A DNA stretch of 60,146 nucleotides from an uncultured Bacilli bacterium. Its GTDB lineage: Bacteria > Bacillota_I > Bacilli_A > RF39 > UBA660. Below, piece after piece: positions 2,012 to 39,292 of this stretch. The stretch is taken from contig CANRCZ010000004.1 in NCBI GenBank assembly GCA_947629265.1, forward strand, positions 1-60,146, given 5' to 3'. The first letter of the stretch is position 1. Every line of letters starts with the position of its first letter. Below the pieces are notes generated by a model. That model was not told the DNA's origin. It searched no databases and saw nothing but the letters and a program-made list of their open reading frames with translations. Made by a program: the position numbers and the translations under genes.

Positions 2012-2034
2012 TAAAAAAGGATCCTAAGATCCTT
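2012..2034 (-). terminator. Rho-independent terminator overlapping the stop codon of the Cys-rich gene
   Basis: The minus strand reads AAAGGATC-TTAG-GATCCTTT followed by further T residues, giving an 8-bp stem. The TAG stop lies in the loop. Confidence 0.7.
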
Positions 2035-5000: not shown

Positions 5001-5176
5001 CAGAGTGTTGATGTAGTGGTCCAATTAGGACATATACTAGAACTTCCGGGAGCTGACATACCAGTTCCGTTACCACTAGCACCAGGACGACCAGTTGTTG
5101 CCCTTACTCCAGTTACATTAAATAACAATGTTAATAAAATACATATAATTGATATTAATAAACTATTCTTCTTCAT
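2024..5176 (-). CDS. Secreted Cys-rich protein (1050 aa), family unknown
   Basis: N-terminal signal peptide MKKNSLLISIICILLTLLFNVTGVRA. I counted about 44 Cys by hand, with a dense cluster around aa 725-885 containing repeated C..G.KYCGKDLTD..-type motifs. A Gly-rich linker (PGSGPGTTGGDPGNGNGGNN) precedes a C-terminal domain starting IIYRVIDLEDPFPGKSGDGRDPGFNW. There is no LPXTG motif or C-terminal transmembrane segment. Confidence 0.85.
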   Translation of the reverse strand: MKKNSLLISIICILLTLLFNVTGVRATTGRPGASGNGTGMSAPGSSSICPNWTTTSTLCVYNNKNHASVRFTLMRYDPSKSGNNKYTQVGKSVYFMSNTSYSIDEVKYLDKNGNVKTDKNIVSEKRLINGKDPDSGKIWYASGHNINPDGIQSHFVTKNGHLSQNSLDLFQRMKIKKSENFPVPKDDKISELSAFLINEVAGQECSVSFGSDGSSEEKCKDIKRRYRIVVEPVYSFWTGPKDNKIVYYTAKAIAASGKDLTNGDRWCEIANLLYLEKKDDKFGGFTAGKSYGSSTTCNQGGTHDNLTGNAKSSRNALKKFKNGQGYNIIKFWDDDDIPTPKVCKYNDTDYFKKNRSGSSTPTSKKGSGPNGENCCDLDYIAPNQSKTNLENYIAEYKKLNPGKSMSKSKFKKYFNEIHPECVKPDPPAPVEKVADCNASSETIYDQGAGASTLIASTIQERGTTSVNGSTSKYLRKNVGSYGSISCSEKVTLTLPNKYMNNVYRGSKLEWPTFENSKRSNTYPLTLNGSATCVATIDYSEIVDDNTDPCYSVYKCHCDRWGCSYCCSKKIYWDNVHSDIRNTQSQIKYYSSHPQELYDLKGDFYVNYSDKKYGTKQKLTRYYNGYDNKNYTMDKIKFDDDQSLTSNSFKITQVVKYKIPQNFYRYVVKDNNTGTNISTSNKPTGSNYIDVGYGNLPIADDAAQGEYTYGIQYSNVGGFSNKQFAKNKLVSYTCKYKIDNVQVPTCSCDDPSTANYGKDLTDCLTGGCDNKKYTCLQAKKKFCNIAPCECPEGTKYCGKDLTDYVAKGKTCSQAQAQYCGTDLKACPSGTDFQGQALLTPTCESNYSCKMLKCNVYACPKNTTNSGQKINTLIASYIAKNNVTFSDTVLKKVQNLYCNTSDCDPSKDPDCPGSGPGTTGGDPGNGNGGNNIIYRVIDLEDPFPGKSGDGRDPGFNWDDAETVRNYITNNRRVETNKIYNKNNVMYHFKLTTKTIKEIRKYNKSHDYADFNLTCKAKGGRNCISSFVHNTSYGLQGDSKCYSTGSFSTCKGS

Positions 5177-5235: not shown

Positions 5236-5263
5236 ATAAAAAAAAGATTTTTTTATCTTTTTT
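5236..5263. terminator. Weak AT-rich hairpin between the array and the Cys-rich gene (possible leaky terminator)
   Basis: AAAAGAT-TTTTTT-ATCTTTT flanked by A and T runs, with only one G:C pair in the stem. Confidence 0.3.
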
Positions 5264-5315
5264 CATAATTTTTTTGATTTTATTTTATAATATAACTATT
5301 TTTAAGCTTTTTATA

Positions 5316-6383
5316 CTATAAATATTTTAATAATTTTTTCATTTCTTTTTTCTTATTATTGATTAATGATACCTCTTCTTGAGTAAAATTATTTTGATTT
5401 ACTACCTTTTCTTTTTCCATAAAAGTTAAAGTATCCCAAATAATTACATAGCTACCGATTAACTCTCTTCTTTGATATAATGTAGAATTCAAATCGATTA
5501 ATTTGTTTTGATAAAATTTTAAACTTATTAAAATACAGTCTTTGATATCTTTTTCATTAAATTGGTATTTACTTATTTTTTCAATTCTTTTTAAACTATT
5601 TTTTTCAAATGCAACGTCTAACTTTTGTAATTCTTTAATAGCTTGTAAATATGCTGATATAGCCCTTTTAAACTCTTCTTTTTCTTGTTTTAAATTATTA
5701 TTTATGATAGCTTTTACAATAATATCAACTATCTTATCATTATCTAAGGTATCTAAATCATTTAGTTTTTGTATGGTGTCATTATATATTTTATCTAACC
5801 AGCTATTTCGAGTACTAACATTTTGTTTAAAACATGCAAATTGAACGATCTCTTTTATATCGTCATCAAGGTTTAAATCTTCAAAACCTAAATATTTTAA
5901 AATTTGTTGTTTAGATATATTATTACTTGATAATTTAGATGATACTTTGATATTCTTGATAGTTTCTTTAGCTTTATTATACCCTACTTGGTATTTTGGA
6001 TCATTATTTAAAACATATATTATTTTTTCTTTATTATTGGCCCAAAATTGTTGAATGGTACTACCATTTTTAAATTTATTTTTTAAATCGTTTTTTTGAG
6101 GTAGATAACCACTATTTAATAGATTAATGTATTCATCTATCTTTTCATTATATGAGGTAGTTCTTGATTTTTTATTTCTGATTATCTCTTTAGCAGTTTC
6201 ATATCCTACCTCATATTTGGGGTTATTAAATAATTCATTTATTATTTTATCTTTATTGTTTGACCAAAATTGTTGAATGATATTACCATTTTTAAACTTG
6301 GTTTTTACGTCACAACTTTTGGGTATATAACCAGTATTTAATAGATCGATATATTCTTCTATTTTAGCATCTATATTTTTCAT
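5316..6383 (-). CDS. Array paralog 9 (355 aa): 2 repeats plus the most diverged C-terminal module
   Basis: Repeat cores EEYIDLLNTGYIPKS and DEYINLLNSGYLPQK. Shine-Dalgarno GGAGGT lies 4 nt upstream of the ATG. No signal peptide. Confidence 0.9.
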   Translation of the reverse strand: MKNIDAKIEEYIDLLNTGYIPKSCDVKTKFKNGNIIQQFWSNNKDKIINELFNNPKYEVGYETAKEIIRNKKSRTTSYNEKIDEYINLLNSGYLPQKNDLKNKFKNGSTIQQFWANNKEKIIYVLNNDPKYQVGYNKAKETIKNIKVSSKLSSNNISKQQILKYLGFEDLNLDDDIKEIVQFACFKQNVSTRNSWLDKIYNDTIQKLNDLDTLDNDKIVDIIVKAIINNNLKQEKEEFKRAISAYLQAIKELQKLDVAFEKNSLKRIEKISKYQFNEKDIKDCILISLKFYQNKLIDLNSTLYQRRELIGSYVIIWDTLTFMEKEKVVNQNNFTQEEVSLINNKKKEMKKLLKYL

Positions 6384-6393
6384 GGTTACCTCC

Positions 6394-7479
6394 TTACATC
6401 ATTTTTTTTAATACTTTGATTTCTTCTTGTTTTTCATTAATTAATGATATTTCTTCTATAGTAAAATTATTTTGTTTTATTATATTTTCTTTTTCTAAAT
6501 CAGTTAATTCATCCCAATCGATAATGTAACTACTGATTAATTTTCTTCTTTTATATAGATCAGTTGTTGGTTCGATCAATTTTTCTTGATTAAATTCTAA
6601 GCTTATCAAAACACATTCTTCAATATCAAATTCATCAAAATTATATTTTTTGATTTTTTCAAATTTTTTTTGGTTATCTTCTTCAAAGGCAATATCTAGT
6701 TTTTGTAATTCTTTAACTTTGTTTAAATAAGACAAGATAGCATCTTTAAATTCTTTTCTTTCTTCTTTTTCTAGACAATTAGTGATAATATCATAACTGA
6801 TAATATCGGCAATTTTAGCTTCATCTAAAGTATCTAAGATATCTAATTTTTTTAAGGTATTGATATATGTCTCTTTGATCCACTTATTTTGTTTACTGAC
6901 ATGTTGGTTAAAGCATTCGTTTTTAATAATACTTTTTAAGGAATGATGTGGTCCTTGTTTGATTTCTATACCTAAGTATTTTAAGATTTGATCTTTAGCG
7001 ATTTTAGTATTATTAATAGAGCTGTAGCTTACCTTTATTTTAGCTAAGGTATCTTTAGCGATATCGTAACCTTTTTGATATTTAGGATTATTATATAGTT
7101 CGTAAACTATCTTTTCTTTATTGTTTAACCAAAAATATTTGATTTTATCACCATTAGTGAAATAATTTACTTTATCGATAACTTTTGGTACGTAACCACT
7201 ATTCATTAGTTCAATATATTCATCTACTTTTTTTAAGTATTCGATCTGTCTTCTAGGTTTAATTTTAACAGATTGAACGATTTCTTTAGCGGTGTCATAG
7301 CCTACTTTATATTTTGGATCGTTATTTAATTTATTGATAATTCTTTCTTTATTGTTTGCCCAAAAATGATTAACTGATTCGCCATTTTTAAAGACGATCT
7401 CTCTATCTTTATGTCTTGGAATATAACCACTATTTAATAGTTCGATATATTCGTCTACTTTGATATATTTTTCTTGCAT
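6394..7479 (-). CDS. Array paralog 8 (361 aa): 2 repeats plus C-terminal module
   Basis: Repeat cores DEYIELLNSGYIPRH and DEYIELMNSGYVPKV. The spacer to the upstream gene is 12 nt and contains AGAGGC. Confidence 0.9.
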   Translation of the reverse strand: MQEKYIKVDEYIELLNSGYIPRHKDREIVFKNGESVNHFWANNKERIINKLNNDPKYKVGYDTAKEIVQSVKIKPRRQIEYLKKVDEYIELMNSGYVPKVIDKVNYFTNGDKIKYFWLNNKEKIVYELYNNPKYQKGYDIAKDTLAKIKVSYSSINNTKIAKDQILKYLGIEIKQGPHHSLKSIIKNECFNQHVSKQNKWIKETYINTLKKLDILDTLDEAKIADIISYDIITNCLEKEERKEFKDAILSYLNKVKELQKLDIAFEEDNQKKFEKIKKYNFDEFDIEECVLISLEFNQEKLIEPTTDLYKRRKLISSYIIDWDELTDLEKENIIKQNNFTIEEISLINEKQEEIKVLKKMM

Positions 7480-7491
7480 ACTAACGCCTCT

Positions 7492-9528
7492 TTATATTAG
7501 TTTTTTTAATACTTTGATTTCTTCTTGTTTTTCATTAATTAATGATATTTCGTTTTCTGTAAAATTGTTTTGTTTTATAATACCATCTTTTTCTTCAGTT
7601 GTAAATTCATCCCAGTCGATAATGTAACTACTGATTAGTTTTCTTCTTTTATATAAATCCGTTCTTGGTTCGATAAATTTAGCTTGATCAAATTCTAAGC
7701 TTATCAAAACACATTCTTCGATATCAAATTCATCAAAATTATATCCTTTGATTTTTTCGCTTCTTTTTTCATTATCTTCTTCAAAAGCAACGTCTAGTTT
7801 TTGTAATTCTTTAACTTTTTCTAAGTAGGATAAAATAGCCTTTTTAAATTCTTCGCGTTCTTCTTTTTCTAGGCAGTTTTCGATGATTTCACGGCTGACA
7901 ATATTAGCGATTTTATCCTCATCTAAAGTAATCAATTTATCTAATTTATCTAAAGTATCTTGGTACGCTTCTTTTATCCATGTATTTTGTCTACTTACAT
8001 GTTGGTTAAAGCAGGCACTTTTAATGATATCTTTTATTGGATAGTAAATTTCTTTCTCTAATTCAATACCTAAATAGTTTAGAATTTGTTTTTTAGATAT
8101 TTTTACCTTTTTTGGTTTATTTGATACTTTAGTTTCAACTTGATTTATCATTTTGTTTAATGTCATTTTAGCGGTTTCATAACCTGTATTATAATTTGGA
8201 TCGTTATTTAATTTATAGATGATCTTATTTTTATTGACTGACCAAAAGCGATTGATAGCTTCACCATCTTTAAATTTAGTTTCATAGTCACAATATCTTG
8301 GAATATAACCTTTATTTAATAATTCAATATATTCACTTAATTTTTTTTCAAACAAAATGTTACTGACCTCTTTTGGTTTTAATGGTTCTAATATATCTTG
8401 AGCTGTTTCATACCCTACTTGGTATTTAGGATCGCTAATGAATTTATCGATTATTTTAGCTTTATTATTTGACCAAAAATTATTAATAAAATCACCATTT
8501 TTAAACTTGATATTTTGGTCACAATTTTTTGGAATATAACCATTATTTACTAATTCGATATATTCATCGATTTTTTGTTCAAAGATAATTTCTCTTGCAT
8601 TTTGTAGTGATAGTTGATTAATTATGTTTAAAGCTGTTTCATAACCTACTTGATATTTGGGGTTATTATTAAATTCACTGATGATTTGATATTTATACCT
8701 TGTCCAAAAATGTTTAATTTCACTACCATTTTGAAATTTAGTTACAGTATCATAAGCTTTGGGTAGATAGCCAATATTCATTAGTTCGATATATTCATCT
8801 ATATGCATCTTAATTTCTATTTGTTTTGGTTTTTCATTTAAAAATCTAATGACGGTTTTTTTAGCAGTTTCATAGCCTACTGCATATTTTAGATCATTAT
8901 TTAAAAGATCGATTATCTTATCTTTATTATTTTTCCAAAAACGATTAATAGCTTTGCCATCTTGAAATTTAGTTTCTAGGTCAAGGTATTTAGGTTGATA
9001 ACCTTTATTTAATAGCTCGATATAATAACTTAATTTCATTGCAAAGGTAATGTTATCTTTTTTATTTTTTAATTCTTTTAGTAAGTTTTTAGCGGTATCA
9101 TAGCCTACATCATATTTAGGATTACTGTTTAGTTCTCTAGTGATTTTATCTTTATTGATTGCCCAAAAGTGACTAATGATTTCACCATTTTGAAATTTAG
9201 CTTCAGGATCATTTTTTTTAGGTATATAGCCATGATTTAGTAATTCGATATATTCTTCTATAAGCATCCTCATTTTGATTTGTCTTGGTGTTTCTTTCGC
9301 TAAGTTAATAGCGTTTTTTTTAGCAGTTTCATAACCTACTTGATATTTGGGTTCGCTATTTAGGATATAGATGATCTTATTTTTATTGGTTGGCCAAAAA
9401 TGGTTGATACCATCACCAGTTGTAAAACTAGTTTCATAATCATAATATTTTGGCTTATAACCACTATTTAATAATTCAATATATTCGTCAATTTTTTGGC
9501 GTGTTATAATTCTACTTTGACCTGGCAT
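7492..9528 (-). CDS. Array paralog 7 (678 aa): 6 repeats plus C-terminal module
   Basis: N-terminus MPGQSRIITRQK is shared with paralog 6. There are six xEYIELLNxGYxPK cores, and the spacer carries GAGGTGAT. Confidence 0.9.
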   Translation of the reverse strand: MPGQSRIITRQKIDEYIELLNSGYKPKYYDYETSFTTGDGINHFWPTNKNKIIYILNSEPKYQVGYETAKKNAINLAKETPRQIKMRMLIEEYIELLNHGYIPKKNDPEAKFQNGEIISHFWAINKDKITRELNSNPKYDVGYDTAKNLLKELKNKKDNITFAMKLSYYIELLNKGYQPKYLDLETKFQDGKAINRFWKNNKDKIIDLLNNDLKYAVGYETAKKTVIRFLNEKPKQIEIKMHIDEYIELMNIGYLPKAYDTVTKFQNGSEIKHFWTRYKYQIISEFNNNPKYQVGYETALNIINQLSLQNAREIIFEQKIDEYIELVNNGYIPKNCDQNIKFKNGDFINNFWSNNKAKIIDKFISDPKYQVGYETAQDILEPLKPKEVSNILFEKKLSEYIELLNKGYIPRYCDYETKFKDGEAINRFWSVNKNKIIYKLNNDPNYNTGYETAKMTLNKMINQVETKVSNKPKKVKISKKQILNYLGIELEKEIYYPIKDIIKSACFNQHVSRQNTWIKEAYQDTLDKLDKLITLDEDKIANIVSREIIENCLEKEEREEFKKAILSYLEKVKELQKLDVAFEEDNEKRSEKIKGYNFDEFDIEECVLISLEFDQAKFIEPRTDLYKRRKLISSYIIDWDEFTTEEKDGIIKQNNFTENEISLINEKQEEIKVLKKLI

Positions 9529-9541
9529 AATTAATCACCTC

Positions 9542-11119
9542 TTATCTAAGTTTTTTTAATATTTTTATCTCTTCTTGTTTTTTATCAATTAATGCAATTT
9601 CTTCTATTGTAAAGTTATTTTGTTTGATGATTTCTTCTTTTTCTTCAGTTGTAAATTCATCCCAATCGATAATGTAACTACTGATTAGTTTTCTTCTATT
9701 ATATAAGTCTGTTCTTGGTTCGATCAATTTAGCTTGATTAAATTCTAAGCTTATTAAAACACATTCTTCGATATCGTATTCATCAAAATTATATTCTTTG
9801 ATTTTTTCAATTCTGTTTTCAGTATTCGCTTCAAAGGCAACGTCTAGTTTTTGTAGTTCTTTAACTTTTTCTAGATATAATAAGATAGCTTGTTTAAATT
9901 CTTCGCGTTCTTCTTTTTCTAGACAGTTTTCGATGATTGCATTTGTTATGATATCGATAATCAGATTTTCATCTAAAGTATCTAATTTATCTAGTTTATT
10001 TAAAGTATTATAGTATGCTTCTTTTATCCAGGCATTTTGATTACTGACACATTTGTTAAAGCAGGCAATTTTAATAATATCATTTAATGGATAATAAATT
10101 TCTTTTTCTACTTTAATACCTAAGTAATTTAAAATTTGTATTTTGGATATTTTTAATTTTTTAACTTTTTTTGATTTTTTCTTTTTAGATTTACTTATAG
10201 TCATATTTATCATATCTTTAGCAGTTTCATAACCCATCCCATATTTTGGATTATTATTTAATTCACTGATGATTTCATTTTTATGTTTTATCCAAAATTT
10301 ATTAATTGTATCGCCATTTTTAAACTTGATATTTAGTTCAACTCTCATTGGCACGTAACCATGGTTTAATAACTCGATATATTCGGCTATTCTTCTTGAA
10401 AGTTTAATTTCAATCGATGTTTTAGTTGCAAGTTGATTAATTATGTTTTTAGCTTGTTCATAACCTACCTCATATTTTGGATCGTTATTTAATTTATCGA
10501 TGATTTTAGTTTTATTATTATTCCAAAATTGATTGATTAAATCACCACTTGTAAATTTAGTTTCTAAGTCACAATATTTTGGTATATATCCATTATTTAA
10601 TAATTCAATGTATTCATCTAGGTTTTTTAAAAATTTGTCTTTCCTTAATACTCTTGTTTCAAAGCGTTTAATCATATCTTTAGCGGTTTCATAGCCTACC
10701 TCATACTTTGAATTATTATTTAATTCACTGATAATTTCATTTTTATGATTTGACCAAAATTGGTTAATAAAACCGCCATTTTTAAACTTAACATTGTGTT
10801 CAACGTACTTTGGTTCATAACCATTATTTAGTAGTTCAATATATTCATTTATCTTCATCTTAATTTCTGTCTGTTTTGGTTTTTCACTTAGAAATCTAGT
10901 GATAATTTCTTTAGCGGTGTCATAGCCTATATCATACTTTGAATTATTATTTAATTCACTGATGATTTCATTTTTATGGTTTGACCAAAATTGGTTAATT
11001 AAGTCACCATTTTTAAACTTAATCTTTTGTTCAAAGTAATTTGGTTCATAACCATTATTTAATAATTCAATATATTCTTCCATTTTTTGGCGGGTTATAA
11101 TTCTACTTTGACCTGGCAT
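9542..11119 (-). CDS. Array paralog 6 (525 aa): 4 repeats plus C-terminal module
   Basis: Four repeat cores. A K-rich linker (KSKKKKSKKVKKLK) precedes the C-terminal module, and the spacer carries GAGGTGAT. Confidence 0.9.
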   Translation of the reverse strand: MPGQSRIITRQKMEEYIELLNNGYEPNYFEQKIKFKNGDLINQFWSNHKNEIISELNNNSKYDIGYDTAKEIITRFLSEKPKQTEIKMKINEYIELLNNGYEPKYVEHNVKFKNGGFINQFWSNHKNEIISELNNNSKYEVGYETAKDMIKRFETRVLRKDKFLKNLDEYIELLNNGYIPKYCDLETKFTSGDLINQFWNNNKTKIIDKLNNDPKYEVGYEQAKNIINQLATKTSIEIKLSRRIAEYIELLNHGYVPMRVELNIKFKNGDTINKFWIKHKNEIISELNNNPKYGMGYETAKDMINMTISKSKKKKSKKVKKLKISKIQILNYLGIKVEKEIYYPLNDIIKIACFNKCVSNQNAWIKEAYYNTLNKLDKLDTLDENLIIDIITNAIIENCLEKEEREEFKQAILLYLEKVKELQKLDVAFEANTENRIEKIKEYNFDEYDIEECVLISLEFNQAKLIEPRTDLYNRRKLISSYIIDWDEFTTEEKEEIIKQNNFTIEEIALIDKKQEEIKILKKLR

Positions 11120-11132
11120 AACAAATCACCTC

Positions 11133-12941
11133 TTATCTAAGTTTTTTTAATACTTTTATCTCCTCTTGTTTTTCATTAATTAAGGCAATTTCTTCTATCG
11201 TAAAGTTATTTTGTTTGATGATTTCTTCTTTTTCTTCAAGTGTAAATTCATTCCAATCGATAATGTAACTACTGATTAGTTTTCTTCTATTATATAGATT
11301 GTTTGTTGGTTCGATTATTTTAGCTTGATTAAACTCTAAGCTTATTAAAACGCATTCTTCGATATCAAATTCATCAAAATTATATTTTTTGATTTTTTCG
11401 ATTCTGTTTTGGTTGTCTTCTTCAAAGGCAACGTCTAGTTTTTGTAATTCTTTAACTTTTTCTAGATATAATAAAATAGTTTGTTTAAATTCTTCACGTT
11501 CTTCTTTTTCTAGACAGTTTTCGATGATTTCACGACTGATAATATCAACAATTTTAGCCTCATCTAAAGTATTTAATTTATCTAGTTTATTTAAAGTGCT
11601 TTGATACGCTTCTTTTATCCACCTATTTTGCTTACTGACACATTTGTTAAAGCAGGCAATCTTAATAATATCTTCTACTGAATTATCAGTTTCTTTTTTT
11701 AGTTCGATACCTAAATATTTTAGGATTTGTCTTTTAGATATTTTTAATTTGTTTGGTTCAGATGCTTCTTTCTTTTTAGAATTACTTATAACTTTTTCTA
11801 TCATATCTTTAGCAGTGTCATACCCTACTATATACTTTGGATCGTTATTTAAAAGATCGATAATTTTAGCTTTATTGGTTTGCCAAAAATAATTGATACC
11901 ATCACCATTTTCAAATTTAGTTTCTAAGTCACAATATTTTGGTTCATAGCCAAGATTTAATAACTCAATATATTCAGTGATCTTCTTTAAAAATTTAGCC
12001 TTTCTTAACGTCTCTGTTTCAACTTTTTTAATCATTTCTTTAGCGGTTTCATAGCCTACTTGGTATTTTGGATCATTATTTAAAAGATTGATGATCTTAT
12101 CTTTATTGACTGGCCAAAATTGATTGATTAAATCACCATTTTGAAATGTAGTTTTATGTTCATAATATCTTGGAATATAGCCAGTATTTAATAACTCGAT
12201 ATATTCATATATTTTCTTAAAAAAATTAACTTTTCTTAATGTTTCTATTTCAACTTGTTTTACTATTTCTTTAGCCTTTTCATAACCTACGGCGTATTTT
12301 AAATCGTTATTTAAGGTATCGATGATTTTAGCTTTATTGACTCGCCAAAAATGATTAATAAATTCACCATTCGTAAATTTAGTTTCTAAGTCACAATATT
12401 TTGGTTCATAACCGCTATTTAATAACTCGATATATTCTTTCAATTTTTGTGAAAAAATGTCCTTCTTTGGTATTTTCATTTCAACTTGTTTTATTATTTC
12501 TTTAGCTTGTTCATACCCTATCTCATATTTTTGATTGTTATTTAATTCACTAACGATTTTATCTTTATTATTAATCCAAAATTGATTAATAAATTCACCA
12601 TTTTGAAATGTAGTCTTATAATCACAATGTTTTGGAATATAACCACTGTTTACTAGGTCGATATATTCTTCTATCCGCAACCTAAATTCTTTTTGGGATT
12701 GGGTTTCGTTTTGAAATTTAATAGCGGTCCTTTTAGCAGTTTCATAGCCTTTCTTGTATTTTAAATCATTATTTAAGATATCGATGATTTTGTTTTTATT
12801 GCTTCCCCAAAAACGGTTGATTGTATCCCCATTTGTAAATTTGGTTTTAAAATCACAACTTTTTGGGATATAGCCATTATTTAGTAGGTCGATATATTCA
12901 TCTACTTTTTGAAGATACACAATTCTACTTTGACCTCGCAT
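11133..12941 (-). CDS. Array paralog 5 (602 aa): 5 repeats plus C-terminal module
   Basis: N-terminus MRGQSRIVYLQK, five repeat cores, and a spacer carrying GAGGTGAT. Confidence 0.9.
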   Translation of the reverse strand: MRGQSRIVYLQKVDEYIDLLNNGYIPKSCDFKTKFTNGDTINRFWGSNKNKIIDILNNDLKYKKGYETAKRTAIKFQNETQSQKEFRLRIEEYIDLVNSGYIPKHCDYKTTFQNGEFINQFWINNKDKIVSELNNNQKYEIGYEQAKEIIKQVEMKIPKKDIFSQKLKEYIELLNSGYEPKYCDLETKFTNGEFINHFWRVNKAKIIDTLNNDLKYAVGYEKAKEIVKQVEIETLRKVNFFKKIYEYIELLNTGYIPRYYEHKTTFQNGDLINQFWPVNKDKIINLLNNDPKYQVGYETAKEMIKKVETETLRKAKFLKKITEYIELLNLGYEPKYCDLETKFENGDGINYFWQTNKAKIIDLLNNDPKYIVGYDTAKDMIEKVISNSKKKEASEPNKLKISKRQILKYLGIELKKETDNSVEDIIKIACFNKCVSKQNRWIKEAYQSTLNKLDKLNTLDEAKIVDIISREIIENCLEKEEREEFKQTILLYLEKVKELQKLDVAFEEDNQNRIEKIKKYNFDEFDIEECVLISLEFNQAKIIEPTNNLYNRRKLISSYIIDWNEFTLEEKEEIIKQNNFTIEEIALINEKQEEIKVLKKLR

Positions 12942-12954
12942 AACAAATCACCTC

Positions 12955-14508
12955 TTATCTAAGTTTTTTTAATACTTTTATCTCTTCTTGTTTTTCATTA
13001 ATTAATGATATTTCATCTATCGTAAAGTTATTTTGTTTGATGATTTCTTCTTTTTCTAAATCAGTTAATTCATTCCAATCGATAATGTAACTACTGATTA
13101 GTTTTCTTCTTTTTGATAAGTCAGTTGTTGGTTCAATAAATTTAGCTTGATTAAATTCTAAGCTTATTAAAACACATTCTTCGATATCAAATTCATCAAA
13201 ATTATATTTTTTAATCTTTTCGCTTCTTTTTTGATTATCATCTTCAAAGGCAACGTCTAGTTTTTGTAGTTCTTTAACTTTTTCTAAATAAGATAAAACA
13301 GCCTTTTTAAATTCTTCTCGTTCTTCTTTTTCTAGGCAATTATCGATGATTTCGTGAGTGATAATACTAGATATCTTATCCTCATCTAAGATATCTAGCT
13401 TATCTAATTTATTTAAAGTATCTTGGTACGCTTCTTTTATCCAAGCATTTTGGGCACTGACATTTTGTTTAAAACAGGCAATTTTAATAATATCTTCTAC
13501 TAAATTATCAGTTTCTTTTTTTAATTCAATGCCTAAGTATTTTAAAATTTGTATTTTAGATATTTTTAATTTGTTTGGTTCATTTAATTTTTTCTTTTGA
13601 ACCATCATTTTTGCTGTTTCATAATCCTCTTGATATTTTGGATCGTTATTTAATTTAATAACTATCTCATTTCGATGATTAAACCAGAAATCACCTATTT
13701 TTTTACCATCAGCGAAATGATTTACATTATCTTTGGTTTTAGGTATATAACCTTTATTCATTAGTTCGATATACTCATCCATTTTTTGATTGATAGAAAC
13801 TTTTTGAGGATTTTCATTTCTTAGTTTATCTAAAGTATCTTTAGCTTGTTCATAACCTGTTTGATACTTAACAGCATTATCTAAAGTAGCGATTATTTTA
13901 TCTTTATGACTTTCCCAAAACCTATTTATTTTTTTACCATCAGTGAAACTATTTACATTATCGTTCGTTTTTGGAATGTAACCATTATTTAATAGTTCAA
14001 TATATTCTTTAATCCTCTCAGTTTGTGGTGTTTCTGTTAGTATTTTATCTTCAACTTTTTCTGCAACTATTTGAACGATTTCTTTAGCGGTTTCATAACC
14101 TATTTTGTATTTTGGATCATTATTTAAAATGTCGATGATTTTATCTTTATGATGAGCCCAAAAAGTATTAATCAAATCACCATTTGTAAATTTAGTTTTA
14201 ATGTCTCTACTTTTTGGCATGTAACCACGATTTAATAACTCGATATATTCAGTGATTTTCATCTTAATTTTCATTTGTTTTGGAGTTTCATTTTCTAAGT
14301 TAAAAGCTATCTCTTTAGCCTTATCGTAACCTACCTCATATTTTGAATCGCTATTTAAGATATTAATTATTTGATATTTATGTCTATACCAAAAATAATT
14401 GATAGCTTCACCATCTTTAAATGTTGATAAATTATCATAAGTTTTAGGGATATATCCATTATTTACTAATTCGATATATTCATATATTTTCGTATATTTT
14501 TTCTCCAT
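12955..14508 (-). CDS. Array paralog 4 (517 aa): 4 repeats plus C-terminal module
   Basis: Four repeat cores. The spacer Shine-Dalgarno is GAGATGAT. Confidence 0.9.
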   Translation of the reverse strand: MEKKYTKIYEYIELVNNGYIPKTYDNLSTFKDGEAINYFWYRHKYQIINILNSDSKYEVGYDKAKEIAFNLENETPKQMKIKMKITEYIELLNRGYMPKSRDIKTKFTNGDLINTFWAHHKDKIIDILNNDPKYKIGYETAKEIVQIVAEKVEDKILTETPQTERIKEYIELLNNGYIPKTNDNVNSFTDGKKINRFWESHKDKIIATLDNAVKYQTGYEQAKDTLDKLRNENPQKVSINQKMDEYIELMNKGYIPKTKDNVNHFADGKKIGDFWFNHRNEIVIKLNNDPKYQEDYETAKMMVQKKKLNEPNKLKISKIQILKYLGIELKKETDNLVEDIIKIACFKQNVSAQNAWIKEAYQDTLNKLDKLDILDEDKISSIITHEIIDNCLEKEEREEFKKAVLSYLEKVKELQKLDVAFEDDNQKRSEKIKKYNFDEFDIEECVLISLEFNQAKFIEPTTDLSKRRKLISSYIIDWNELTDLEKEEIIKQNNFTIDEISLINEKQEEIKVLKKLR

Positions 14509-14521
14509 AATTAATCATCTC

Positions 14522-17500
14522 TTATCTCATTTTTTTTAATATCTTTATTTCTTCTTGTTTTTCATTAATTAGTGATATTTCATCTACAGTAAGGTTGTTT
14601 TGGTTGATGATAGTTTGTTTTTCTAAATCAGTTAATTCGTTCCAATCGATGATACAGCTACTGATTAGTTTTCTTCTATTATATAGATCAGTTGCTAGTT
14701 CGATAAATTTAGTTTGATTAAATTCTAAACTTATTAAAACACATTCTTCAATATCGTATTCATCAAACTTATATTTTCTTATTTTAAGTTTTTTTAGTTG
14801 TCCGTTTTCTTCAAAAGCGACGTCTAGCTTTTGTAATTCTTTAACTTTTTCTAAATAGGATAAAACAGCTTTTTTAAATTCTTCACGTTCTTCTTTTTCT
14901 AAGTGGTTTTTGATAATTTCACACGTCATGATATCGACAATAAGATTTTCATCTAAGGTATCTAAGATATCTAGAGCATCTAAGGTATTACAATATGCTT
15001 TTTTTATTTGCTCACTTTGCATACTAACATGTTCGTTAAAGCAAGCATTTTGAATGATACTTTTTATTGAGTCATCATTGGTATCTTCAATTTTTAAGTA
15101 TTTTAAGATTTGATCTTTACTAATAACTTTTGTATAAGTTAGATTTTCTTTTTGTTTATTGATTTCTTTTGTCATTTGTTTATCGATTATAATAGCTTTT
15201 TTAGCGGTTTCATAACCCTCTTGATATTTTAAATTGTTATTTAAGTTATCGATAATTTTAGTTTTATAACTCATCCAAAAGAAATTAATAGCTTCACCGT
15301 TACTAAAGTGATTTATCTCATCTTTATATTTAGGTTGATAACCTGTATTTAATAGATCAATATATTCTTTGATTTTATCTAAAATAGTCAATTTTTCTAA
15401 TTTTTGTTTTTCTATTTTAGTTAAGTTTTCTTTAGCGGTTTCGTAACCTATTTGATATTTTAAATCACTATTTAAAGTAGCGATGATTCTATCTTTATAA
15501 CATGTCCAAAAACTATTAATAGCTTCACCATTACTAAAGTGATTTATTTCATCTTTATATTTAGGTATATAACCATGATTTAATAATTCAATATATTCTT
15601 TAATTTTATCTAAAACAGTCATTTTATGTAATTTTTTATTTTCTAGTTTGGTTATAGTTTTTTTAGCTTTTTCATAACCCACTACATATTTTAAATTATT
15701 ATTTAAAGTAGCGATGATTTTATCTTGATGAATTTTCCAAAATAAGCCAATGGCTTCACCGTTACTAAAACGATTTCTTACATCATTATATCTAGGTATA
15801 TAACCATGATTTAATAAATTGATATACTCATCTACTTTTTCATAAATAATAGTTTCTTTAGGTCTTTGATTTTCTAATTTTGATAGCGTTTCTTTGGCTA
15901 ATTCATAACCTACTTGGTATTTTAAATTACTATTTAAAGTAGATAAAATCTGATCTTTATGATTAAACCAGAATTTATTGATAACCTCACCATTTTTAAA
16001 TTTGGTTGTATTATCATAAATTTTAGGTTCATAGCCAACATTTACTAAATCGATATATTCTTCAATTCTTTCGGTTAATGATATTTCTTTTGGTGTTCTA
16101 TTTTCATATTTTTTAGCGGTTTCTTTTGCTAATTCATAACCTACTTGATATTTTGGATCACTATTTAAAATAGCGATGATCCTTTTTTTATTAGTTGGCC
16201 AAAAGTGATTAATAAAACCACCAACTTTAAATTCATTAATCGTATCATCACATAAGGGTGTATAGCCAGTATTTAATAATTCGATATATTCACTTATTTT
16301 TTGAGTATAGATATCACTATTTGATGGGCTATTTACTAATTTATTAATTATTTTTTTAACCTTATCATAACCCTCTTGATATTTTAAATCGTTATTTAAT
16401 TTATCGATTATTTTGTCTTTATTATTAATCCAAAATTGATTGATAGCGCTACCGTTTTTAAATGTTGTTACGTTATCATAAGTTTTAGGTATGTAGCCAC
16501 TATTTACTAATTCGATATATTCATATATCTTCATCTTAATTTCCAGTTGTTTTGGAGTTTCTTTAGCTAATTTAGTAGTGGTTTCTTTAGCGGTTTCATA
16601 ACCTGTTTGGTATTTTAAATCACTATTTAAGATACTGATTATCAAATCTTTATGGTTAAACCAAAACTGATTGATAGCTTTACCATCTTGAAATTTTGTT
16701 ATAGGATCGCTATGTCTTGGGGTGTAACCAGTATTTAATAGTTCAATATATTCAGCTATTTTGTTTAAAAGTTTAATTTTTCTTGTATTTTCTTTTTTTA
16801 TTTTTTTGGCTGTCATTTTTCTTGGTTTATCTTCAAATTTTTTAATTATCTCTTTAGCTTGTTCATATCCTACTTGGTATTTGGGATCATTATTTAAGGT
16901 AGCGATTACTCTACCTTTATGATTTCGCCAAAAAAAGTTAATTAGTTCACCTGATGAAAAACTTATACTATTATCTTGGGTTTTAGGAATATAACCAGTA
17001 TTTATTAGCTCGATATATTCAGTGATCTGTCTTGAAAGTTTAATTTCTTTTGGTGCTTTAGTTGCAAGCTGGTTAATTATATCTTTAGCGGTTTCATAGC
17101 CTACCTCATATTTTGGATCGTTATTTAAAGTAGTAATTATTCGCTCTTTTTGGTTTTGCCAAAATTGATTAATTAAATCACCATTTTGAAATTTAACTTT
17201 ATTTTCATTGGAATTTGGAATATAACCATGGTTTAATAACTCGATATATTCATTAATTCTTCTTGAAAGTTTAATTTCAATCGATGTTTTAGTTGCAAGT
17301 TGGCTAATTATCTCTTTAGCCTTTTCATATCCTATTTGGTAGTTTGGATCATTATTTAAGGCATTTATTACTTTATCTTTATGATTTGGCCAAAAGAAAT
17401 TGATACTCTCGCCATTTTTAAATTTAGTTTGATAATCTAGTTTGGTTGGTATGTAGCCATTATTTAGTAATTCAATAAATTCTTGTAATTTATGTCTTAC

Positions 17501-17716
17501 GGTATTTTTATTGATTGCTGCTTTAGCTTGTTCATACCCTATTTGATATCTTAAATCATTATTTAAAGTATAAATTATTTTATCTTTATTAGTTGTCCAA
17601 AAACGATTAATTGAACTACCATCACTAAATTTAGTTAAAATATCATTAGATTTTGGGATATAACCATTATTTAATAGTTCGATATATTCAGCGATTCTAA
17701 TATGTATGTTTGACAT
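14522..17716 (-). CDS. Array paralog 3 (1064 aa): 11 repeats plus C-terminal module
   Basis: Eleven repeat cores. Repeats 10 and 11 are near-identical (KYKDEINHFSNGEAIN). The start codon lies inside the 3' end of paralog 2. Confidence 0.9.
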   Translation of the reverse strand: MSNIHIRIAEYIELLNNGYIPKSNDILTKFSDGSSINRFWTTNKDKIIYTLNNDLRYQIGYEQAKAAINKNTVRHKLQEFIELLNNGYIPTKLDYQTKFKNGESINFFWPNHKDKVINALNNDPNYQIGYEKAKEIISQLATKTSIEIKLSRRINEYIELLNHGYIPNSNENKVKFQNGDLINQFWQNQKERIITTLNNDPKYEVGYETAKDIINQLATKAPKEIKLSRQITEYIELINTGYIPKTQDNSISFSSGELINFFWRNHKGRVIATLNNDPKYQVGYEQAKEIIKKFEDKPRKMTAKKIKKENTRKIKLLNKIAEYIELLNTGYTPRHSDPITKFQDGKAINQFWFNHKDLIISILNSDLKYQTGYETAKETTTKLAKETPKQLEIKMKIYEYIELVNSGYIPKTYDNVTTFKNGSAINQFWINNKDKIIDKLNNDLKYQEGYDKVKKIINKLVNSPSNSDIYTQKISEYIELLNTGYTPLCDDTINEFKVGGFINHFWPTNKKRIIAILNSDPKYQVGYELAKETAKKYENRTPKEISLTERIEEYIDLVNVGYEPKIYDNTTKFKNGEVINKFWFNHKDQILSTLNSNLKYQVGYELAKETLSKLENQRPKETIIYEKVDEYINLLNHGYIPRYNDVRNRFSNGEAIGLFWKIHQDKIIATLNNNLKYVVGYEKAKKTITKLENKKLHKMTVLDKIKEYIELLNHGYIPKYKDEINHFSNGEAINSFWTCYKDRIIATLNSDLKYQIGYETAKENLTKIEKQKLEKLTILDKIKEYIDLLNTGYQPKYKDEINHFSNGEAINFFWMSYKTKIIDNLNNNLKYQEGYETAKKAIIIDKQMTKEINKQKENLTYTKVISKDQILKYLKIEDTNDDSIKSIIQNACFNEHVSMQSEQIKKAYCNTLDALDILDTLDENLIVDIMTCEIIKNHLEKEEREEFKKAVLSYLEKVKELQKLDVAFEENGQLKKLKIRKYKFDEYDIEECVLISLEFNQTKFIELATDLYNRRKLISSCIIDWNELTDLEKQTIINQNNLTVDEISLINEKQEEIKILKKMR

Positions 17717-19697
17717 AGTTATCTCCTCTTATTTGTTTTTTTAATGTTTTAATTTCTTCTTGTTTTTCATTAATTAATGATATTTCTTCTAAAGTAAAAT
17801 TGTTTTGTTTGATAATAGCTTCTTTTTCTTCAGTTGTAAATTCGTTCCAATCGATGATATAATTACTGATTAATTTTCTTCTATTATATAGATCGTTTTG
17901 TGGTTCAATTAGTTTAGATTGATTAAATTCTAAGTTTATTAAAACACATTCTTCAATATCAAATTTATTAAATTGATATTTTTTTATTTTGGCTACTCTT
18001 TTTTGATTGTCTTCTTCAAAGGCAATATCTAGTTTTTGTAGTTTTTTAACTTTTTCTAGATAGAATAAAATAGCCTTTTTAAATTCTTCACGTTCTTCTT
18101 TTTCTAAGTGATTTTCGATGATTGCATTTGTTATGATATCGATAATCATATTTTCATCTAAGATATCTAATTTATCTAGTTCGTTTAAAGCCTTATAGTA
18201 AGCTTTTTCTATTTGTTTATTTTGGTTACTAACATGGTTGTTAAAGCAGACACTTTGGATGATACTTTTTATTGAGCTATTATTTTTTTCATCTACTATT
18301 ATTCCTAAGTATTTTAAGATTTGATCTTTAGATATTTTAGGTTCATTAGTAGTATTATTTAAAATAGCTTTTTTAGCAGTTTCATAGCCTACTTGGTATT
18401 TAGGATCGTTATTTAATTTATCGATTACTTTATCTTTATGATTTGACCAAAATCTACTAATAGCCTCACCATTTTGAAACTTTGTCTTATAATCATTGTA
18501 TTTTGGCATATAGCCACAATTTAATAATTCGATATATTCGTCAACTTTTTTTAACGTTTTAATCTCGACTGACGTCTTAGTTGCAAGTTGACAAATAGTA
18601 TTTTTAGCTTTTTCATAACCTATTTGATATTTTGGATCATTATTTAAAGCTGTGATTACTTTATCTTTATGGTTTAACCAGAAAGTACCGATTAAATCAC
18701 CATTTTGAAATTTATTTTGATAATCTAGTTGAACTGGTATATAACCATTATTTAATAATTCGATATATTCTTGTAATTTATAGCTTACTATATTTTGGTT
18801 AATTACCTCTTTAGCGGTTTCATATCCTACTTGGTATTTGGGTTCGCTATTTAATTTACCGATTACTTTATCTTTATGATTAGCCCAGAATTTACCGATA
18901 AGCTCACCATTTTTAAACTTTATCTTATAATCATTATATTTTGGCATATAGCCACAATTTAATAACTCGATATATTCGTCAACTTTGTTTGAAATTTTAA
19001 TCTCGACTGACGTTTTAGTTGAAAGTTGTTTAATAGTATTTTTAGCTCTTTCATAACCTGTTTGATATCTAGGATCATTATTTAAAGTATCGATTATTTT
19101 ATTTTTATGACTATGCCAAAAAAGATTGATAACCTCACCATTTTGAAATTTAATTTGATTTTCATTAACTACTGGTATGTAACCATTATTTAGTAGCTCA
19201 ATGTATTCATCGATTTGCCTTAAAATTTGAATTTCTTTAGGTCGTTTAGTTGTTAATTTATTAATTATCTCTTTAGCTTGTTCATAACCTACTTGGTATT
19301 TAGAATCATTATTTAAGGTATCGATTATTTTATTTTTTTGATTTGACCAAAAATGATTGATATCTTCACCATTTGTAAATTTAGTTTCTGAATCACAAAT
19401 TTTTGGTAGGTAACCATTATTTAATAATTCGATATATTCATCTATCTGTTTTAAAAGTTTAAGATCTTTTGGTTTTTTAGTTTTTAATTTATTGATAGTA
19501 TCTTTAGCCTTTTCATAACCTACTTGGTATTTTGGATCACTATTTAAGGTATCGATTATTCTATTTTTTTGATTTGGCCAAAAATGATTGATACCCTCAC
19601 CAGTTGTAAATTTAATTTGGCTTTCATTAACTACTGGTATGTAACCATTATTTAGTAGTTCGATATATTCATCTATTTTAAGATATATATTTAACAT
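17697..19697 (-). CDS. Array paralog 2 (666 aa): 6 repeats plus C-terminal module with an 11-aa read-through tail
   Basis: Six repeat cores. The usual ..LKK-x-x-stop ending is replaced by LKKQIRGDNYVKHTY, which overlaps the Shine-Dalgarno and start codon of paralog 3. Confidence 0.9.
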   Translation of the reverse strand: MLNIYLKIDEYIELLNNGYIPVVNESQIKFTTGEGINHFWPNQKNRIIDTLNSDPKYQVGYEKAKDTINKLKTKKPKDLKLLKQIDEYIELLNNGYLPKICDSETKFTNGEDINHFWSNQKNKIIDTLNNDSKYQVGYEQAKEIINKLTTKRPKEIQILRQIDEYIELLNNGYIPVVNENQIKFQNGEVINLFWHSHKNKIIDTLNNDPRYQTGYERAKNTIKQLSTKTSVEIKISNKVDEYIELLNCGYMPKYNDYKIKFKNGELIGKFWANHKDKVIGKLNSEPKYQVGYETAKEVINQNIVSYKLQEYIELLNNGYIPVQLDYQNKFQNGDLIGTFWLNHKDKVITALNNDPKYQIGYEKAKNTICQLATKTSVEIKTLKKVDEYIELLNCGYMPKYNDYKTKFQNGEAISRFWSNHKDKVIDKLNNDPKYQVGYETAKKAILNNTTNEPKISKDQILKYLGIIVDEKNNSSIKSIIQSVCFNNHVSNQNKQIEKAYYKALNELDKLDILDENMIIDIITNAIIENHLEKEEREEFKKAILFYLEKVKKLQKLDIAFEEDNQKRVAKIKKYQFNKFDIEECVLINLEFNQSKLIEPQNDLYNRRKLISNYIIDWNEFTTEEKEAIIKQNNFTLEEISLINEKQEEIKTLKKQIRGDNYVKHTY

Positions 19698-19712
19698 AAT
19701 TATTCCCCCTTT

Positions 19713-21509
19713 TTATCTCATTTTTTTTAAGGTTTTAATTTCTTGTTGTTTTTCATTAATTAAGGCAATTTCTTCTAAAGTAAAGTTATTTTGTTTGATG
19801 ATAGCTTCTTTTTCTAAAGTAGTTAATTCGTTCCAATCGATGATACAGCTACTGATTAGTTTTCTTCTATTATATAAGTCAGTTTTTGGTTCGATAAGTT
19901 TAGATTGGTTAAATTCTAAGCTTATCAAAACACATTCTTCAATATCAAATTCATCAAATTGATATTTTCTAATTTTTTGTTTTTTAATATAGTTGTTATT
20001 TTCAAAAGCGATATCTAGTTTTTGTAGTTCTTTAACTTTTTGTAAGTATGCAAAAATAGCTTTTTTAAATTCTTCACGTTCTTCTTTTTCTAGACAGTTT
20101 TCAATAATTTCGTGAGTGATAATATCAGCGATTTTAGCTTCATCTAAAGTATCTAGTTTATCTAATTTTTTTAAGGTCTTACGATATGGTTCGTTCATCC
20201 ATTTATGTTGTTTACTGACATTTTGTTTAAAACATTCACCTTTAATAATACTTTTAATTGAATTATCGGTTTCTTTTTTTAGTTCGATACCTAAGTATTT
20301 TAAGATTTGATCTTTAGCGATCTTTTCTGTTTTATTAGTAGTTTTATATTCACCTTGTCTATTAGGTGAAATAGCCTCTTTAGCAGTTTCATAGCCTACT
20401 TGGTATTTTGGATCGTTATTTAATTTATCGATGATCTTATCTTTATTATTTCTCCAAAAATAATTGATAGCTTTACCATTTATAAGTTCAGTTTTAAAAT
20501 CAATACCTTTTATCATATAGCCATTATTTAATAGTTCGATATATTTTTCGATTTTAGCTTCTAATAAAATAGCATTCGCTTTTCTAGTTTTTAATTCTTC
20601 GATAATAGCTTTAGCTTTCTCATAACCTACTTGGTACTTTGGATCATTATCTAAAGCTATAATTACTCTATCTCTATGCGTTGTCCAAAAATAGCCTATA
20701 AAATCACCATTCGTAAACTTAGTTTCTAAATCACAATATTTTGGGATATAGCCATTATTTAATAGATTAATATAATCGTTTACTTTAGTTTCAAAGAAAA
20801 GGACACTCATATCTTTAGTTTTTAAGGTTTCTAAGGTTTCTTTAGCTTTATCATAACCTATCTTGTATTTAGGATTGCTATTAAATTCAGCGTATATTTT
20901 ATCCCTATTACGTTTTGACCAGAAAGTACTGATTAAATCACCATTTTTAAACTTGATATTTTGTTCTTTATATCTTGGTATATAACCTTGATTTAATAAC
21001 TCGATATATTCATCTACTTTTTGATCGAAGATTATATCTTTTACTTGTTTATCTTCTAATTGATTAATTATTTCTTTAGCGGTTTCATAACCTGTTTGAT
21101 ACTGTGGATCATTATCTAAAGCAGCGATTATCCTATCTTTTTGACTTGTCCAAAAATAATTGATAGTTTCACCAGTTGTAAATTTAGTTTCTAAATCACA
21201 ATGTTTTGGTAAGTAACCATTATTTAACAAATTAATATAATCTCTTACCTTAATTTCAAATAAAAGATTACTAGGTGTTTGTATTTTTAATTTTTCTAAG
21301 GTAGCTTTAGCTTGTTCATATCCTATCTTATATTTAGTATCACTATTAAATTTATCATATATTCTATCCTTATAATATGGCCAAAAGCGATTAATTGTCA
21401 CACCATTTGAAAATTTAGTTTTTGGATCATTTTTTTTAGGTATATAACCATTATTTAATAATTCAATATATTCATCCATTTCAACATCCGTCTTTTTCAT
21501 CTTTTCCAT
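19713..21509 (-). CDS. Array paralog 1 (598 aa): 5 repeats plus C-terminal module; first gene of the array
   Basis: Five repeat cores. AAGGGGG abuts the first ATG at 21509, so the ATG at 21500 (MKKTDVEMDEY...) may be the true start. Confidence 0.88.
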   Translation of the reverse strand: MEKMKKTDVEMDEYIELLNNGYIPKKNDPKTKFSNGVTINRFWPYYKDRIYDKFNSDTKYKIGYEQAKATLEKLKIQTPSNLLFEIKVRDYINLLNNGYLPKHCDLETKFTTGETINYFWTSQKDRIIAALDNDPQYQTGYETAKEIINQLEDKQVKDIIFDQKVDEYIELLNQGYIPRYKEQNIKFKNGDLISTFWSKRNRDKIYAEFNSNPKYKIGYDKAKETLETLKTKDMSVLFFETKVNDYINLLNNGYIPKYCDLETKFTNGDFIGYFWTTHRDRVIIALDNDPKYQVGYEKAKAIIEELKTRKANAILLEAKIEKYIELLNNGYMIKGIDFKTELINGKAINYFWRNNKDKIIDKLNNDPKYQVGYETAKEAISPNRQGEYKTTNKTEKIAKDQILKYLGIELKKETDNSIKSIIKGECFKQNVSKQHKWMNEPYRKTLKKLDKLDTLDEAKIADIITHEIIENCLEKEEREEFKKAIFAYLQKVKELQKLDIAFENNNYIKKQKIRKYQFDEFDIEECVLISLEFNQSKLIEPKTDLYNRRKLISSCIIDWNELTTLEKEAIIKQNNFTLEEIALINEKQQEIKTLKKMR

Positions 21510-21531: not shown

Positions 21532-21540
21532 AGTATAGCA
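21532..21540 (-). promoter_or_regulatory. Extended -10 element (TGcTATACT), candidate promoter of the array
   Basis: The minus strand reads ...TTTACAATTTTGTGCTATACTAACC... about 25 nt upstream of the AAGGGGG ribosome-binding site. The -35 element is weak. It lies just downstream of the ftsX terminator. Confidence 0.45.
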
Positions 21541-21590
21541 CAAAATTGTAAATTTTTCTATATAAAATCGTGATTTTTTTAATAAATATC

Positions 21591-21614
21591 AAAAAAAACT
21601 GCACTAAATGCAGT
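21591..21614 (-). terminator. Rho-independent terminator after ftsX
   Basis: The minus strand reads ACTGCA-TTTAG-TGCAGT followed by a run of 7-8 T. Confidence 0.65.
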
Positions 21615-21640
21615 TTAAAATGACAATATTGTCGATATTT

Positions 21641-35617: not shown

Positions 35618-35633
35618 ATTTGTTACTCCTTTC

Positions 35634-39286: not shown

Positions 39287-39292
39287 AAGTTA

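Follow-up and report, generated by a model that had tools for sequence, protein, structure and literature searches.

The locus considered here raises the question of what nine consecutive paralogous genes do whose products each consist of a variable number of repeats and a common C-terminal tail module. The genes occupy the minus strand between positions 5316 and 21509 of contig CANRCZ010000004.1 (assembly GCA_947629265.1), from an uncultured Bacilli bacterium; the window analysed is this whole stretch of 60,146 nt. The reading preferred here is that the nine proteins are multivalent binders of nucleic acid, likely DNA, with a tail that mediates self-association or partner recruitment, and that they are co-expressed from one operon. 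This reading draws on sequence comparison and would have a probability of about one half. What the sequences show is how the proteins are built, how they are related to other proteins, where the family occurs, and that the copies are old and under purifying selection. A preliminary description of the locus saw no recognisable function in the proteins and knew of no characterised system of this kind. Profile searches and Foldseek leave that statement standing for the tail module, which has no sequence or fold match, and revise it for the repeat, which relatives connect to a divergent type of helicase-associated (HA) domain (Pfam PF03457).

The repeat and its link to helicase-associated domains

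Anchoring on the motif EYIELLN yields 45 repeats in the nine proteins, and the number found in each paralog (Table 1) reproduces the count given in the preliminary description. The repeat period is 77 aa in most cases (range 69-89). In an alignment of all 45 repeats the mean column identity is 51%, and 10 columns are invariant (I7, L9, N11, G13, Y14, G28, F34, W35, Y52, and Y56). The AlphaFold model of a single repeat has three helices, the first two of which are connected by a long loop that contains a beta bridge; the whole-protein model of paralog 8, with a predicted local distance difference test (pLDDT) score of 84.4, likewise has three helices per repeat. The earlier view of the repeats as helical holds for these three helices, but the short beta bridge makes the unit not purely helical. 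Within the folded unit, nonsynonymous change (pN) exceeds the global synonymous value (pS) only at positions 18, 19, 21, 30, 33, 36, and 46. These hypervariable positions fall on the loop and the start of helix 2; the repeat is strongly conserved outside them.

The relatives that place the repeat were found by an exhaustive profile search of 1.84 billion representatives, in which the query comprised the last two repeats and the tail of all nine copies. The search retrieves 157 proteins at E <= 1e-3, which fall into two classes, one matching through the repeats (class R) and the other through the tail (class C). Class R includes large proteins in which the repeats follow a superfamily 2 (SF2) helicase (P0017, P0030, P0034, P0037, P0024, and P0057); in a Pfam census of this class (n=56), ResIII occurs in 10 proteins, DEAD in 9, and Helicase_C in 9. 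On a contig from the JGI collection (L022), an SF2 helicase is followed directly by six repeats that are 63% identical to those of the window. By its matches, this helicase is similar to DNA helicases of the Type IV restriction type and of phages (PADLOC mREase_IV, 5e-21; PbeA, 1.4e-21; phrog_16 DNA helicase, 1e-46). Homologous repeats are thus found in tandem behind SF2 helicases in relatives, and the window genes themselves have no helicase.

One of these helicase relatives, P0057, connects the window repeat with the Pfam family. P0057 is found by the window profile at E 5e-21 and scores 72.4 bits against PF03457 (cut-off 28.4; E 3.7e-20), and hhalign pairs the window repeat profile with the P0057 repeats at a probability of 96.3% (E 2e-9), or 95.8% when a profile of 191 repeats is used. 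Because P0057 passes the PF03457 cut-off and its repeats match those of the window by hhalign, the window repeat is read as a divergent HA-type domain; its membership in the HA superfamily appears probable from these comparisons.

Given this relationship, a mechanism can be proposed. Each protein would be a string of 2-11 divergent HA-type three-helix domains, joined by short basic linkers and ending in the helical tail. The HA units would contact nucleic acid, the number of units would set the length of the footprint or the avidity, and the seven variable positions listed above may tune binding preference. The C-terminal module would serve in self-association or in docking the array onto a partner supplied in trans; a helicase could fill this role, or a different DNA-transaction enzyme, because relatives fuse the same repeats directly to SF2 helicases. 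As the sequence signals suggest, the nine copies would be co-transcribed from one promoter and translationally coupled, and would therefore form a repertoire of fixed ratio.

Several results weigh against binding of nucleic acid by HA-type units. PF03457 is unmatched by the window proteins in hmmscan of paralogs 3, 4, 8, and 9, even at E <= 1. The HA score of P0057 is a sum of weak repeat matches with no single significant stretch, and one of nine isolated P0057 repeats matches HA at E < 0.01. Between the profile of window-type repeats and the canonical HA-like repeats found in class C, hhalign detects no significant similarity (E 0.041, probability 1.3%), although the two align in the expected register; for alignment A1 against alignment A7, again window-type against canonical HA-like repeats, the E value is 0.4. 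Foldseek finds no HA structure, and nothing at E < 0.1, with the whole-protein model in PDB and BFVD, and the same is true of the single-repeat model, a small domain, in PDB; neither model has a PDB match at E < 1. With a mean pI of 7.1 the repeat cores are close to neutrality, and basic charge is confined to the linkers. Finally, no neighbouring gene that might indicate a pathway is conserved across the genomes at 19 loci of the family described below, where synteny is specific to individual clades.

Other searches bear on the repeat directly. Profiles of P0057-type or P0084-type repeats do not retrieve the solved HA domain from PDB by sequence, and a word-indexed protein search returns essentially the window itself and one repeat-only relative of 588 aa. 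Pfam and NCBIfam matches of the window proteins (YozD, CxC1, and FtsK_gamma) were rejected as artefacts of summed repeats. COMMD1, which appeared at E 0.02 in a PDB sequence search with the repeat and module profiles, was rejected as a short or compositional chance match.

Neutral repeat cores combined with acidic tails are untypical of DNA binders, and no DNA-binding fold is matched directly at a significant level, the HA link being only transitive. Such features would suit protein-protein scaffolds or structural proteins that have no role with nucleic acid, in which HA-type units are spacers or interaction modules and the tail is an assembly domain. This alternative is nevertheless improbable, as the same repeats recur behind helicases, the linkers are basic, and Lys is conserved at repeat positions 17, 24, 40, 42, 52, and 61; in addition, HA domains are reported to bind DNA, their structural prototype being the Bacteroides vulgatus segment BVU_0683(627-691), solved by NMR (Mills et al. 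2013, cited in PMC12191111).

The nucleic acid bound could also be RNA. The proteins would then be post-transcriptional regulators comparable to PPR, mTERF, or Pumilio proteins, with each paralog addressing different transcripts. Modular helical repeats that have conserved cores and few variable positions are in keeping with this proposal, the associated SF2 helicases could act on RNA, and one class R relative with window-type repeats (alignment A8) also matches Pfam mTERF, a helical repeat that binds nucleic acid (E 1.4e-22). The window proteins, however, resemble PPR, PUF, and mTERF proteins neither in sequence nor in fold, the experimental statement for HA domains concerns DNA only, and the associated helicases resemble restriction-type DNA helicases. 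A role as RNA regulators is accordingly considered unlikely, and DNA is retained as the favoured ligand.

The tail module and the family that carries it

The nine tail modules are 200-212 aa long and 54-77% identical to the module of paralog 8, with paralog 9 as the outlier at 54%. The module is modelled as all-helical, with pLDDT around 90. It had been described as an acidic, all-helical module of about 200 aa; the size and the helices agree, but only seven of the nine copies are acidic, and the pI is above 8 in paralogs 1 and 9. No match to the module was found in Pfam or NCBIfam, among PDB sequences, or among PDB and BFVD folds. A similarity of module residues 5-63 to NDUFV2, a subunit of mitochondrial complex I (E 0.013, with the module at 6397-7002), was rejected as a short or compositional chance match.

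Homologs of the tail make up class C, which contains about 70 proteins of 500-1200 aa. They match the window profile only at positions 158-355, always at their extreme C-terminus, and they share the motifs DIEE[SC], Y.RR.L...YIIDW, and EEK with the window tails (alignment A4). Among 48 class C members scanned, 10 pass Pfam HA in their N-terminal repeats (best E 5.8e-42), and in four proteins (P0013, P0019, P0023, and P0025) the tail follows window-type repeats. Since the tail ends proteins that carry HA-type arrays, it is taken to be a family-specific partner of such arrays. In most relatives a further conserved stretch (NGYNY...LINR...WIYEKYG), about 130 aa long, precedes the tail. In the window copies the last repeat is followed by a K-rich linker and then by ISKxQILKYLGIE, and the WIYEKYG columns are gapped in all window rows.

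By sequence, proteins in which this tail follows repeats form an unnamed family with about 100-150 members, found in uncultured gut Bacilli. In GTDB representative genomes, a scan gave 19 loci confirmed by tblastn (L003-L021), all in bins of uncultured gut Bacilli or 'Tenericutes' with 27-34% GC, which include Ca. Onthousia, Ca. Scybalousia, Ca. Faecimonas, and UBA7057. Four of the loci (L012, L016, L018, and L019) are tandem pairs or triplets. In one clade (L014, L016, L017, and L019), one to three copies of an HA-array gene with the tail lie between dnaE and polC, which encode the two replicative polymerases. In JGI metagenomes, a scan with module patterns found no locus and a scan with the repeat pattern found only L022; tblastn against phages and plasmids and a scan of IMG/VR found no relatives.

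A second tandem array, of at least 4-5 genes, is present on contig CAYTKH010000052.1 of GCA_964438315.1 (L029; 22% GC). Its genes of 417, 437, 589, and 805 aa encode 2, 2, 4, and 8 window-type repeats followed by the tail; the spacers are 1-13 nt, engB and der follow, and the array is cut by the contig end. The organisation of the window array, which had been proposed as novel, therefore has counterparts in this array and in the sets of two or three genes elsewhere. Tails are 30-51% identical to one another in L029 and 52-84% in the window, as against 25-34% when the two sets are compared, so that tails cluster by genome and the expansions are either lineage-specific or long maintained. L029 begins with a tail fragment at the contig edge. 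This fragment (positions 2-166) shows no difference over 54 aa from the tail encoded by the gene at 173-1426 and is followed by the same 6-nt spacer, which reflects either a very recent duplication or an assembly repeat.

The copies in the window are old, individually constrained, and under purifying selection. Pairwise synonymous divergence (dS) between tail modules is 0.36-1.3 (median 0.71), and the ratio of nonsynonymous to synonymous divergence (dN/dS) is about 0.25; for the repeats the median dS is 0.93 and dN/dS is 0.43. These ratios uphold the suggestion that the intact reading frames reflect selection. In DNA, the 3' ends of copies 1-8 are 79-90% identical and the repeats 60-80%; long near-identical tracts between copies are absent. 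For some repeats the nearest relative is a neighbour in the same gene; for others it is a repeat of another paralog. The terminal copies had been described as the shortest, with paralog 9 the most diverged, in an array homogenised at its centre. Their size and divergence are as described. Central copies 4-7 are indeed closest to one another, but even the closest pair has a dS of 0.36 and long identical tracts are lacking, and recent gene conversion or homogenisation was rejected.

The repetitive nature of the region, on a contig assembled from a metagenome, raises the possibility of an assembly artefact or of repeat ORFs that are decaying and have no function. Contig L002 from a different sample (ENA ERZ27249360, NODE_20410) bears on this point in two ways. 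Over 2,026 bp it is 99.9% identical to window positions 9781-11806, a stretch that spans the junction of paralogs 5 and 6. Its first 127 nt do not match the corresponding place in the window and give the encoded protein, P0006, a different N-terminus, which could be due to a strain-level rearrangement in the array or to chimeric assembly of that contig. A collapsed or chimeric assembly of the window is unlikely because the copies differ by 10-40% in DNA. With the independent recovery of the junction, nine intact ORFs in a stop-prone sequence, and dN/dS of 0.25-0.43, an artefact or decay is the least probable of the explanations considered.

Organisation and surroundings of the array

The ORF listing of the window, which seems to be a whole metagenomic contig and has a GC content of 25-30%, contains exactly nine consecutive minus-strand ORFs between 5316 and 21509, the same nine, of 355-1064 aa, that had been described before (Table 1). 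Because a stop codon is expected about once per 10 codons at the base composition of the array, ORFs of 355-1064 codons are far beyond chance. An alternative genetic code was rejected, as TGA serves as a stop codon. Codon usage of the array correlates with that of the rest of the contig (r = 0.96), which supports the view that the genes are native to the genome.

Table 1. Coordinates of the array genes, of putative expression signals, and of other features of the window
Feature	Position	Strand	Description
Paralog 1	19713-21509	-	598 aa; 5 HA-type repeats + C-terminal module (module 19716-20321)
Paralog 2	17697-19697	-	666 aa; 6 repeats + module
Paralog 3	14522-17716	-	1064 aa; 11 repeats + module
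Paralog 4	12955-14508	-	517 aa; 4 repeats + module
Paralog 5	11133-12941	-	602 aa; 5 repeats + module
Paralog 6	9542-11119	-	525 aa; 4 repeats + module
Paralog 7	7492-9528	-	678 aa; 6 repeats + module
Paralog 8	6394-7479	-	361 aa; 2 repeats (7003-7464) + module (6397-7002)
Paralog 9	5316-6383	-	355 aa; 2 repeats + module; most diverged copy
Example 77-aa repeat	19221-19451	-	Paralog 2, repeat 2; modelled, pLDDT 89.3
Promoter-like site	21532-21560	-	TAGAAA-17 nt-TGcTATACT, extended -10; putative, consensus match only
Terminator-like hairpin + T-run after ftsX	21596-21616	-	9-pair stem, T tail; parts ftsEX from the array
Weak hairpin 3' of paralog 9	5236-5264	-	A/U-only, then U-run; z-score -1.98, weak
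1050-aa ORF	2024-5176	-	Directly downstream of the array; signal peptide, many Cys-rich motifs
1980-aa ORF	29675-35617	-	Signal peptide; no Pfam match
Big_2 / Listeria-Bacteroides-repeat protein	35634-36992	-	Adjoins the 1980-aa ORF
T-box leader	39107-39287	-	Upstream of seryl-tRNA synthetase gene
AAA_14/DUF4143 ATPase gene	45454-46650	-	Not near the array
927-aa ORF	46740-49523	-	Preceded by T-box leader
T-box leader	49565-49742	-	Upstream of 927-aa ORF

The signals around these genes agree with the earlier proposal of a single, translationally coupled operon that starts at an extended -10 promoter. The promoter-like site is followed on its 3' side by a AAGGGGGA Shine-Dalgarno sequence and then by the ATG of paralog 1. 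The seven intergenic spacers are 15, 13, 13, 13, 13, 12, and 10 nt long, with motifs of the type GAGGTGAT, GGAGG, or GGGGG. This agrees with the 10-15 nt spacers with Shine-Dalgarno sequences and the one overlapping pair noted previously. The sole junction without a spacer is that between paralogs 2 and 3, which overlap by 20 nt (17697-17716) because the end of paralog 2 is frameshifted; its 10-aa tail reads past the usual stop and Shine-Dalgarno sequence (…KKQIRGDNYVKHTY). No minus-strand terminator-like sites were found inside the array, and the weak hairpin 3' of paralog 9 may mark the end of the operon. The nine genes thus look like a single operon, as judged from sequence signals.

In a hydropathy scan by segments of 19 residues, Kyte-Doolittle scores do not exceed 1.06 in the nine proteins, and no signal peptide, lipobox, or transmembrane segment was found; a cytoplasmic location is supported by these predictions, in agreement with the earlier statement that this is not a classical surface-protein family. 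Tandem paralogs that vary in repeat number, in an organism of low GC whose relatives have reduced genomes, do recall the variable surface or secreted antigens of Mollicutes (Vsp/Vlp type), here with non-classical export and with phase or size variation. The Mollicutes-type arrays, however, combine a signal peptide or lipobox with switchable expression, and the window array has neither: the proteins have no hydrophobic segment, there are no homopolymer or invertible-promoter switches, and the genes appear to be coupled behind a single putative promoter. Moreover, repeats that are 60-80% identical in DNA are too diverged for slippage, and homologous repeats are fused to cytoplasmic helicases. 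An antigen family is therefore very improbable.

The array had been placed between ftsEX and a pseudouridine synthase gene. The ftsEX side is as described; on the other side, the 1050-aa Cys-rich ORF intervenes before the pseudouridine synthase. This ORF has no Pfam match and probably encodes a secreted or surface protein unrelated to the array. Farther away, the 1980-aa ORF and the adjoining repeat-protein gene look like a large surface-protein locus (29675-36992). In a search of the whole window against Rfam the only hits are the two T-box leaders, both outside the array; together with the general gene content they place the organism in Bacillota. Other than the AAA_14/DUF4143 ATPase gene, no element-like genes were seen. 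As the preliminary description had held, no mobility genes were found near the array; there are no phage or plasmid matches either. Across the family the neighbours are housekeeping genes that differ between clades, for example dnaE and polC, a P-type ATPase gene with PFL, a penicillin-binding protein gene, rpsU with yqeY, and, in the window, ftsEX.

This setting bears on the possibility that the proteins form a repertoire of sensors against phages or mobile elements, or a counter-defence repertoire, in which HA arrays recognise foreign or modified DNA, diversify in an arms race, and act with a nuclease or helicase encoded elsewhere. The helicases fused to the same repeats resemble the Type IV methyl-directed restriction helicase and PbeA, and HA domains fused to PLD nucleases are reported to replace domains that sense DNA modification (PMC12191111). 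Expansion of the paralogs, variation in repeat number, and the few repeat positions with pN above global pS would also be expected of such a repertoire. The genes nevertheless have housekeeping neighbours in all genomes instead of defence islands, no nuclease, ATPase, or other effector is encoded within or adjoining the array, and the copies have a long history, mostly one of purifying selection. PADLOC matches neither the window proteins nor P0013, P0042, and P0084, PHROGs matches none of the window proteins, and there are no relatives in phages, plasmids, or viral contigs. A defence role is thus unlikely, and nucleic-acid binding by a chromosomally encoded set of proteins remains the preferred reading.

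Comparison with known systems and significance

HA domains are widespread, occurring in helicases, Streptomyces TtrA, telomeric TniQ, and nuclease fusions, and are poorly understood; only one NMR study hints at DNA binding. The window repeats resemble the PF03457 domain in being short units (about 60-70 aa) in multiple tandem copies, with three helices predicted for each, and window-homologous repeats share its position C-terminal to SF2 helicases in L022 and the helicase relatives named above. They differ from it by an extra conserved helix-3 motif (NNDPKYxxGYExAK), by the 77-aa period with basic linkers, and, unlike HA helicases, by the absence of a helicase from both the proteins and the operon.

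Tandem HA domains are also present in Streptomyces TtrA and in the TniQ proteins of clade-2 telomeric Tn7-like elements (bioRxiv 10.1101/2024.11.13.623437). In TtrA and TniQ the HA array is presumed to be a DNA-recognition appendage of a DNA-transaction protein, a role that the window arrays may share. TtrA and TniQ belong to high-GC actinobacteria and have a core that is catalytic or serves in targeting (helicase or TniQ), whereas the HA-type array of the window is joined only to a novel helical tail and is present nine-fold in one operon of a 25% GC member of the Bacillota.

The closest counterparts are within the family itself. The HA-plus-tail proteins of gut Bacilli (P0042, P0054, P0084, and P0013) have the same plan of repeats followed by tail, with homologous last ~200 aa (E 1e-20 to 1e-27 with the window profile) and chromosomal housekeeping neighbours as in the window. 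Mostly, however, their repeats are canonical HA repeats of about 90 aa and a ~130-aa segment precedes the tail, and there are 1-3 copies instead of nine. The L029 array is like that of the window in its window-type repeats and tail, head-to-tail arrangement, very AT-rich sequence, and housekeeping flanks; it differs in being shorter and in tails that carry a WIY..YG-type extension. Defence systems in PADLOC-DB offer no comparable case, since the window proteins match no model and lack a defence-island context.

By analogy only, the proteins may be compared with TALE/BurrH, PPR, and mTERF proteins, which are also strings of helical units with a conserved core and few variable positions, and whose paralogs differ in the number of units. 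The units of those proteins are 33-35 aa long as compared with 77 aa in the window, and there is no sequence or fold similarity. Pressed further, the analogy would make the 77-aa unit a modular reading unit for nucleic acid in which the variable positions specify bases, and the nine co-expressed paralogs, with their 45 units, a programmable repertoire of sequence-specific DNA or RNA binders that the shared tail would assemble or recruit. This is a speculative and quite unlikely extension of the binding proposal. If true, it would amount to a previously unrecognised prokaryotic repeat-code system. Should specificity reside in the variable positions, the family could provide a new scaffold for modular binders.

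The locus is real and unusual, but its isolation had been overrated: the repeat superfamily is already known, though poorly understood, and smaller arrays exist elsewhere. What is new is an HA-type array that is free of a helicase and joined to a novel tail, a repeat subtype that Pfam misses, and a co-oriented expansion to nine genes, the largest found here. The locus is a clean test case, as the HA-type array is freed from an enzyme, bears a family-specific tail, and is present in nine copies maintained by selection. The proteins with two repeats and a tail, at 355-361 aa, are small enough for experiments on HA binding and on recruitment by the tail. The array and its relatives together form a protein family without annotation, restricted to uncultured gut Bacilli with reduced genomes, a poorly known lineage.

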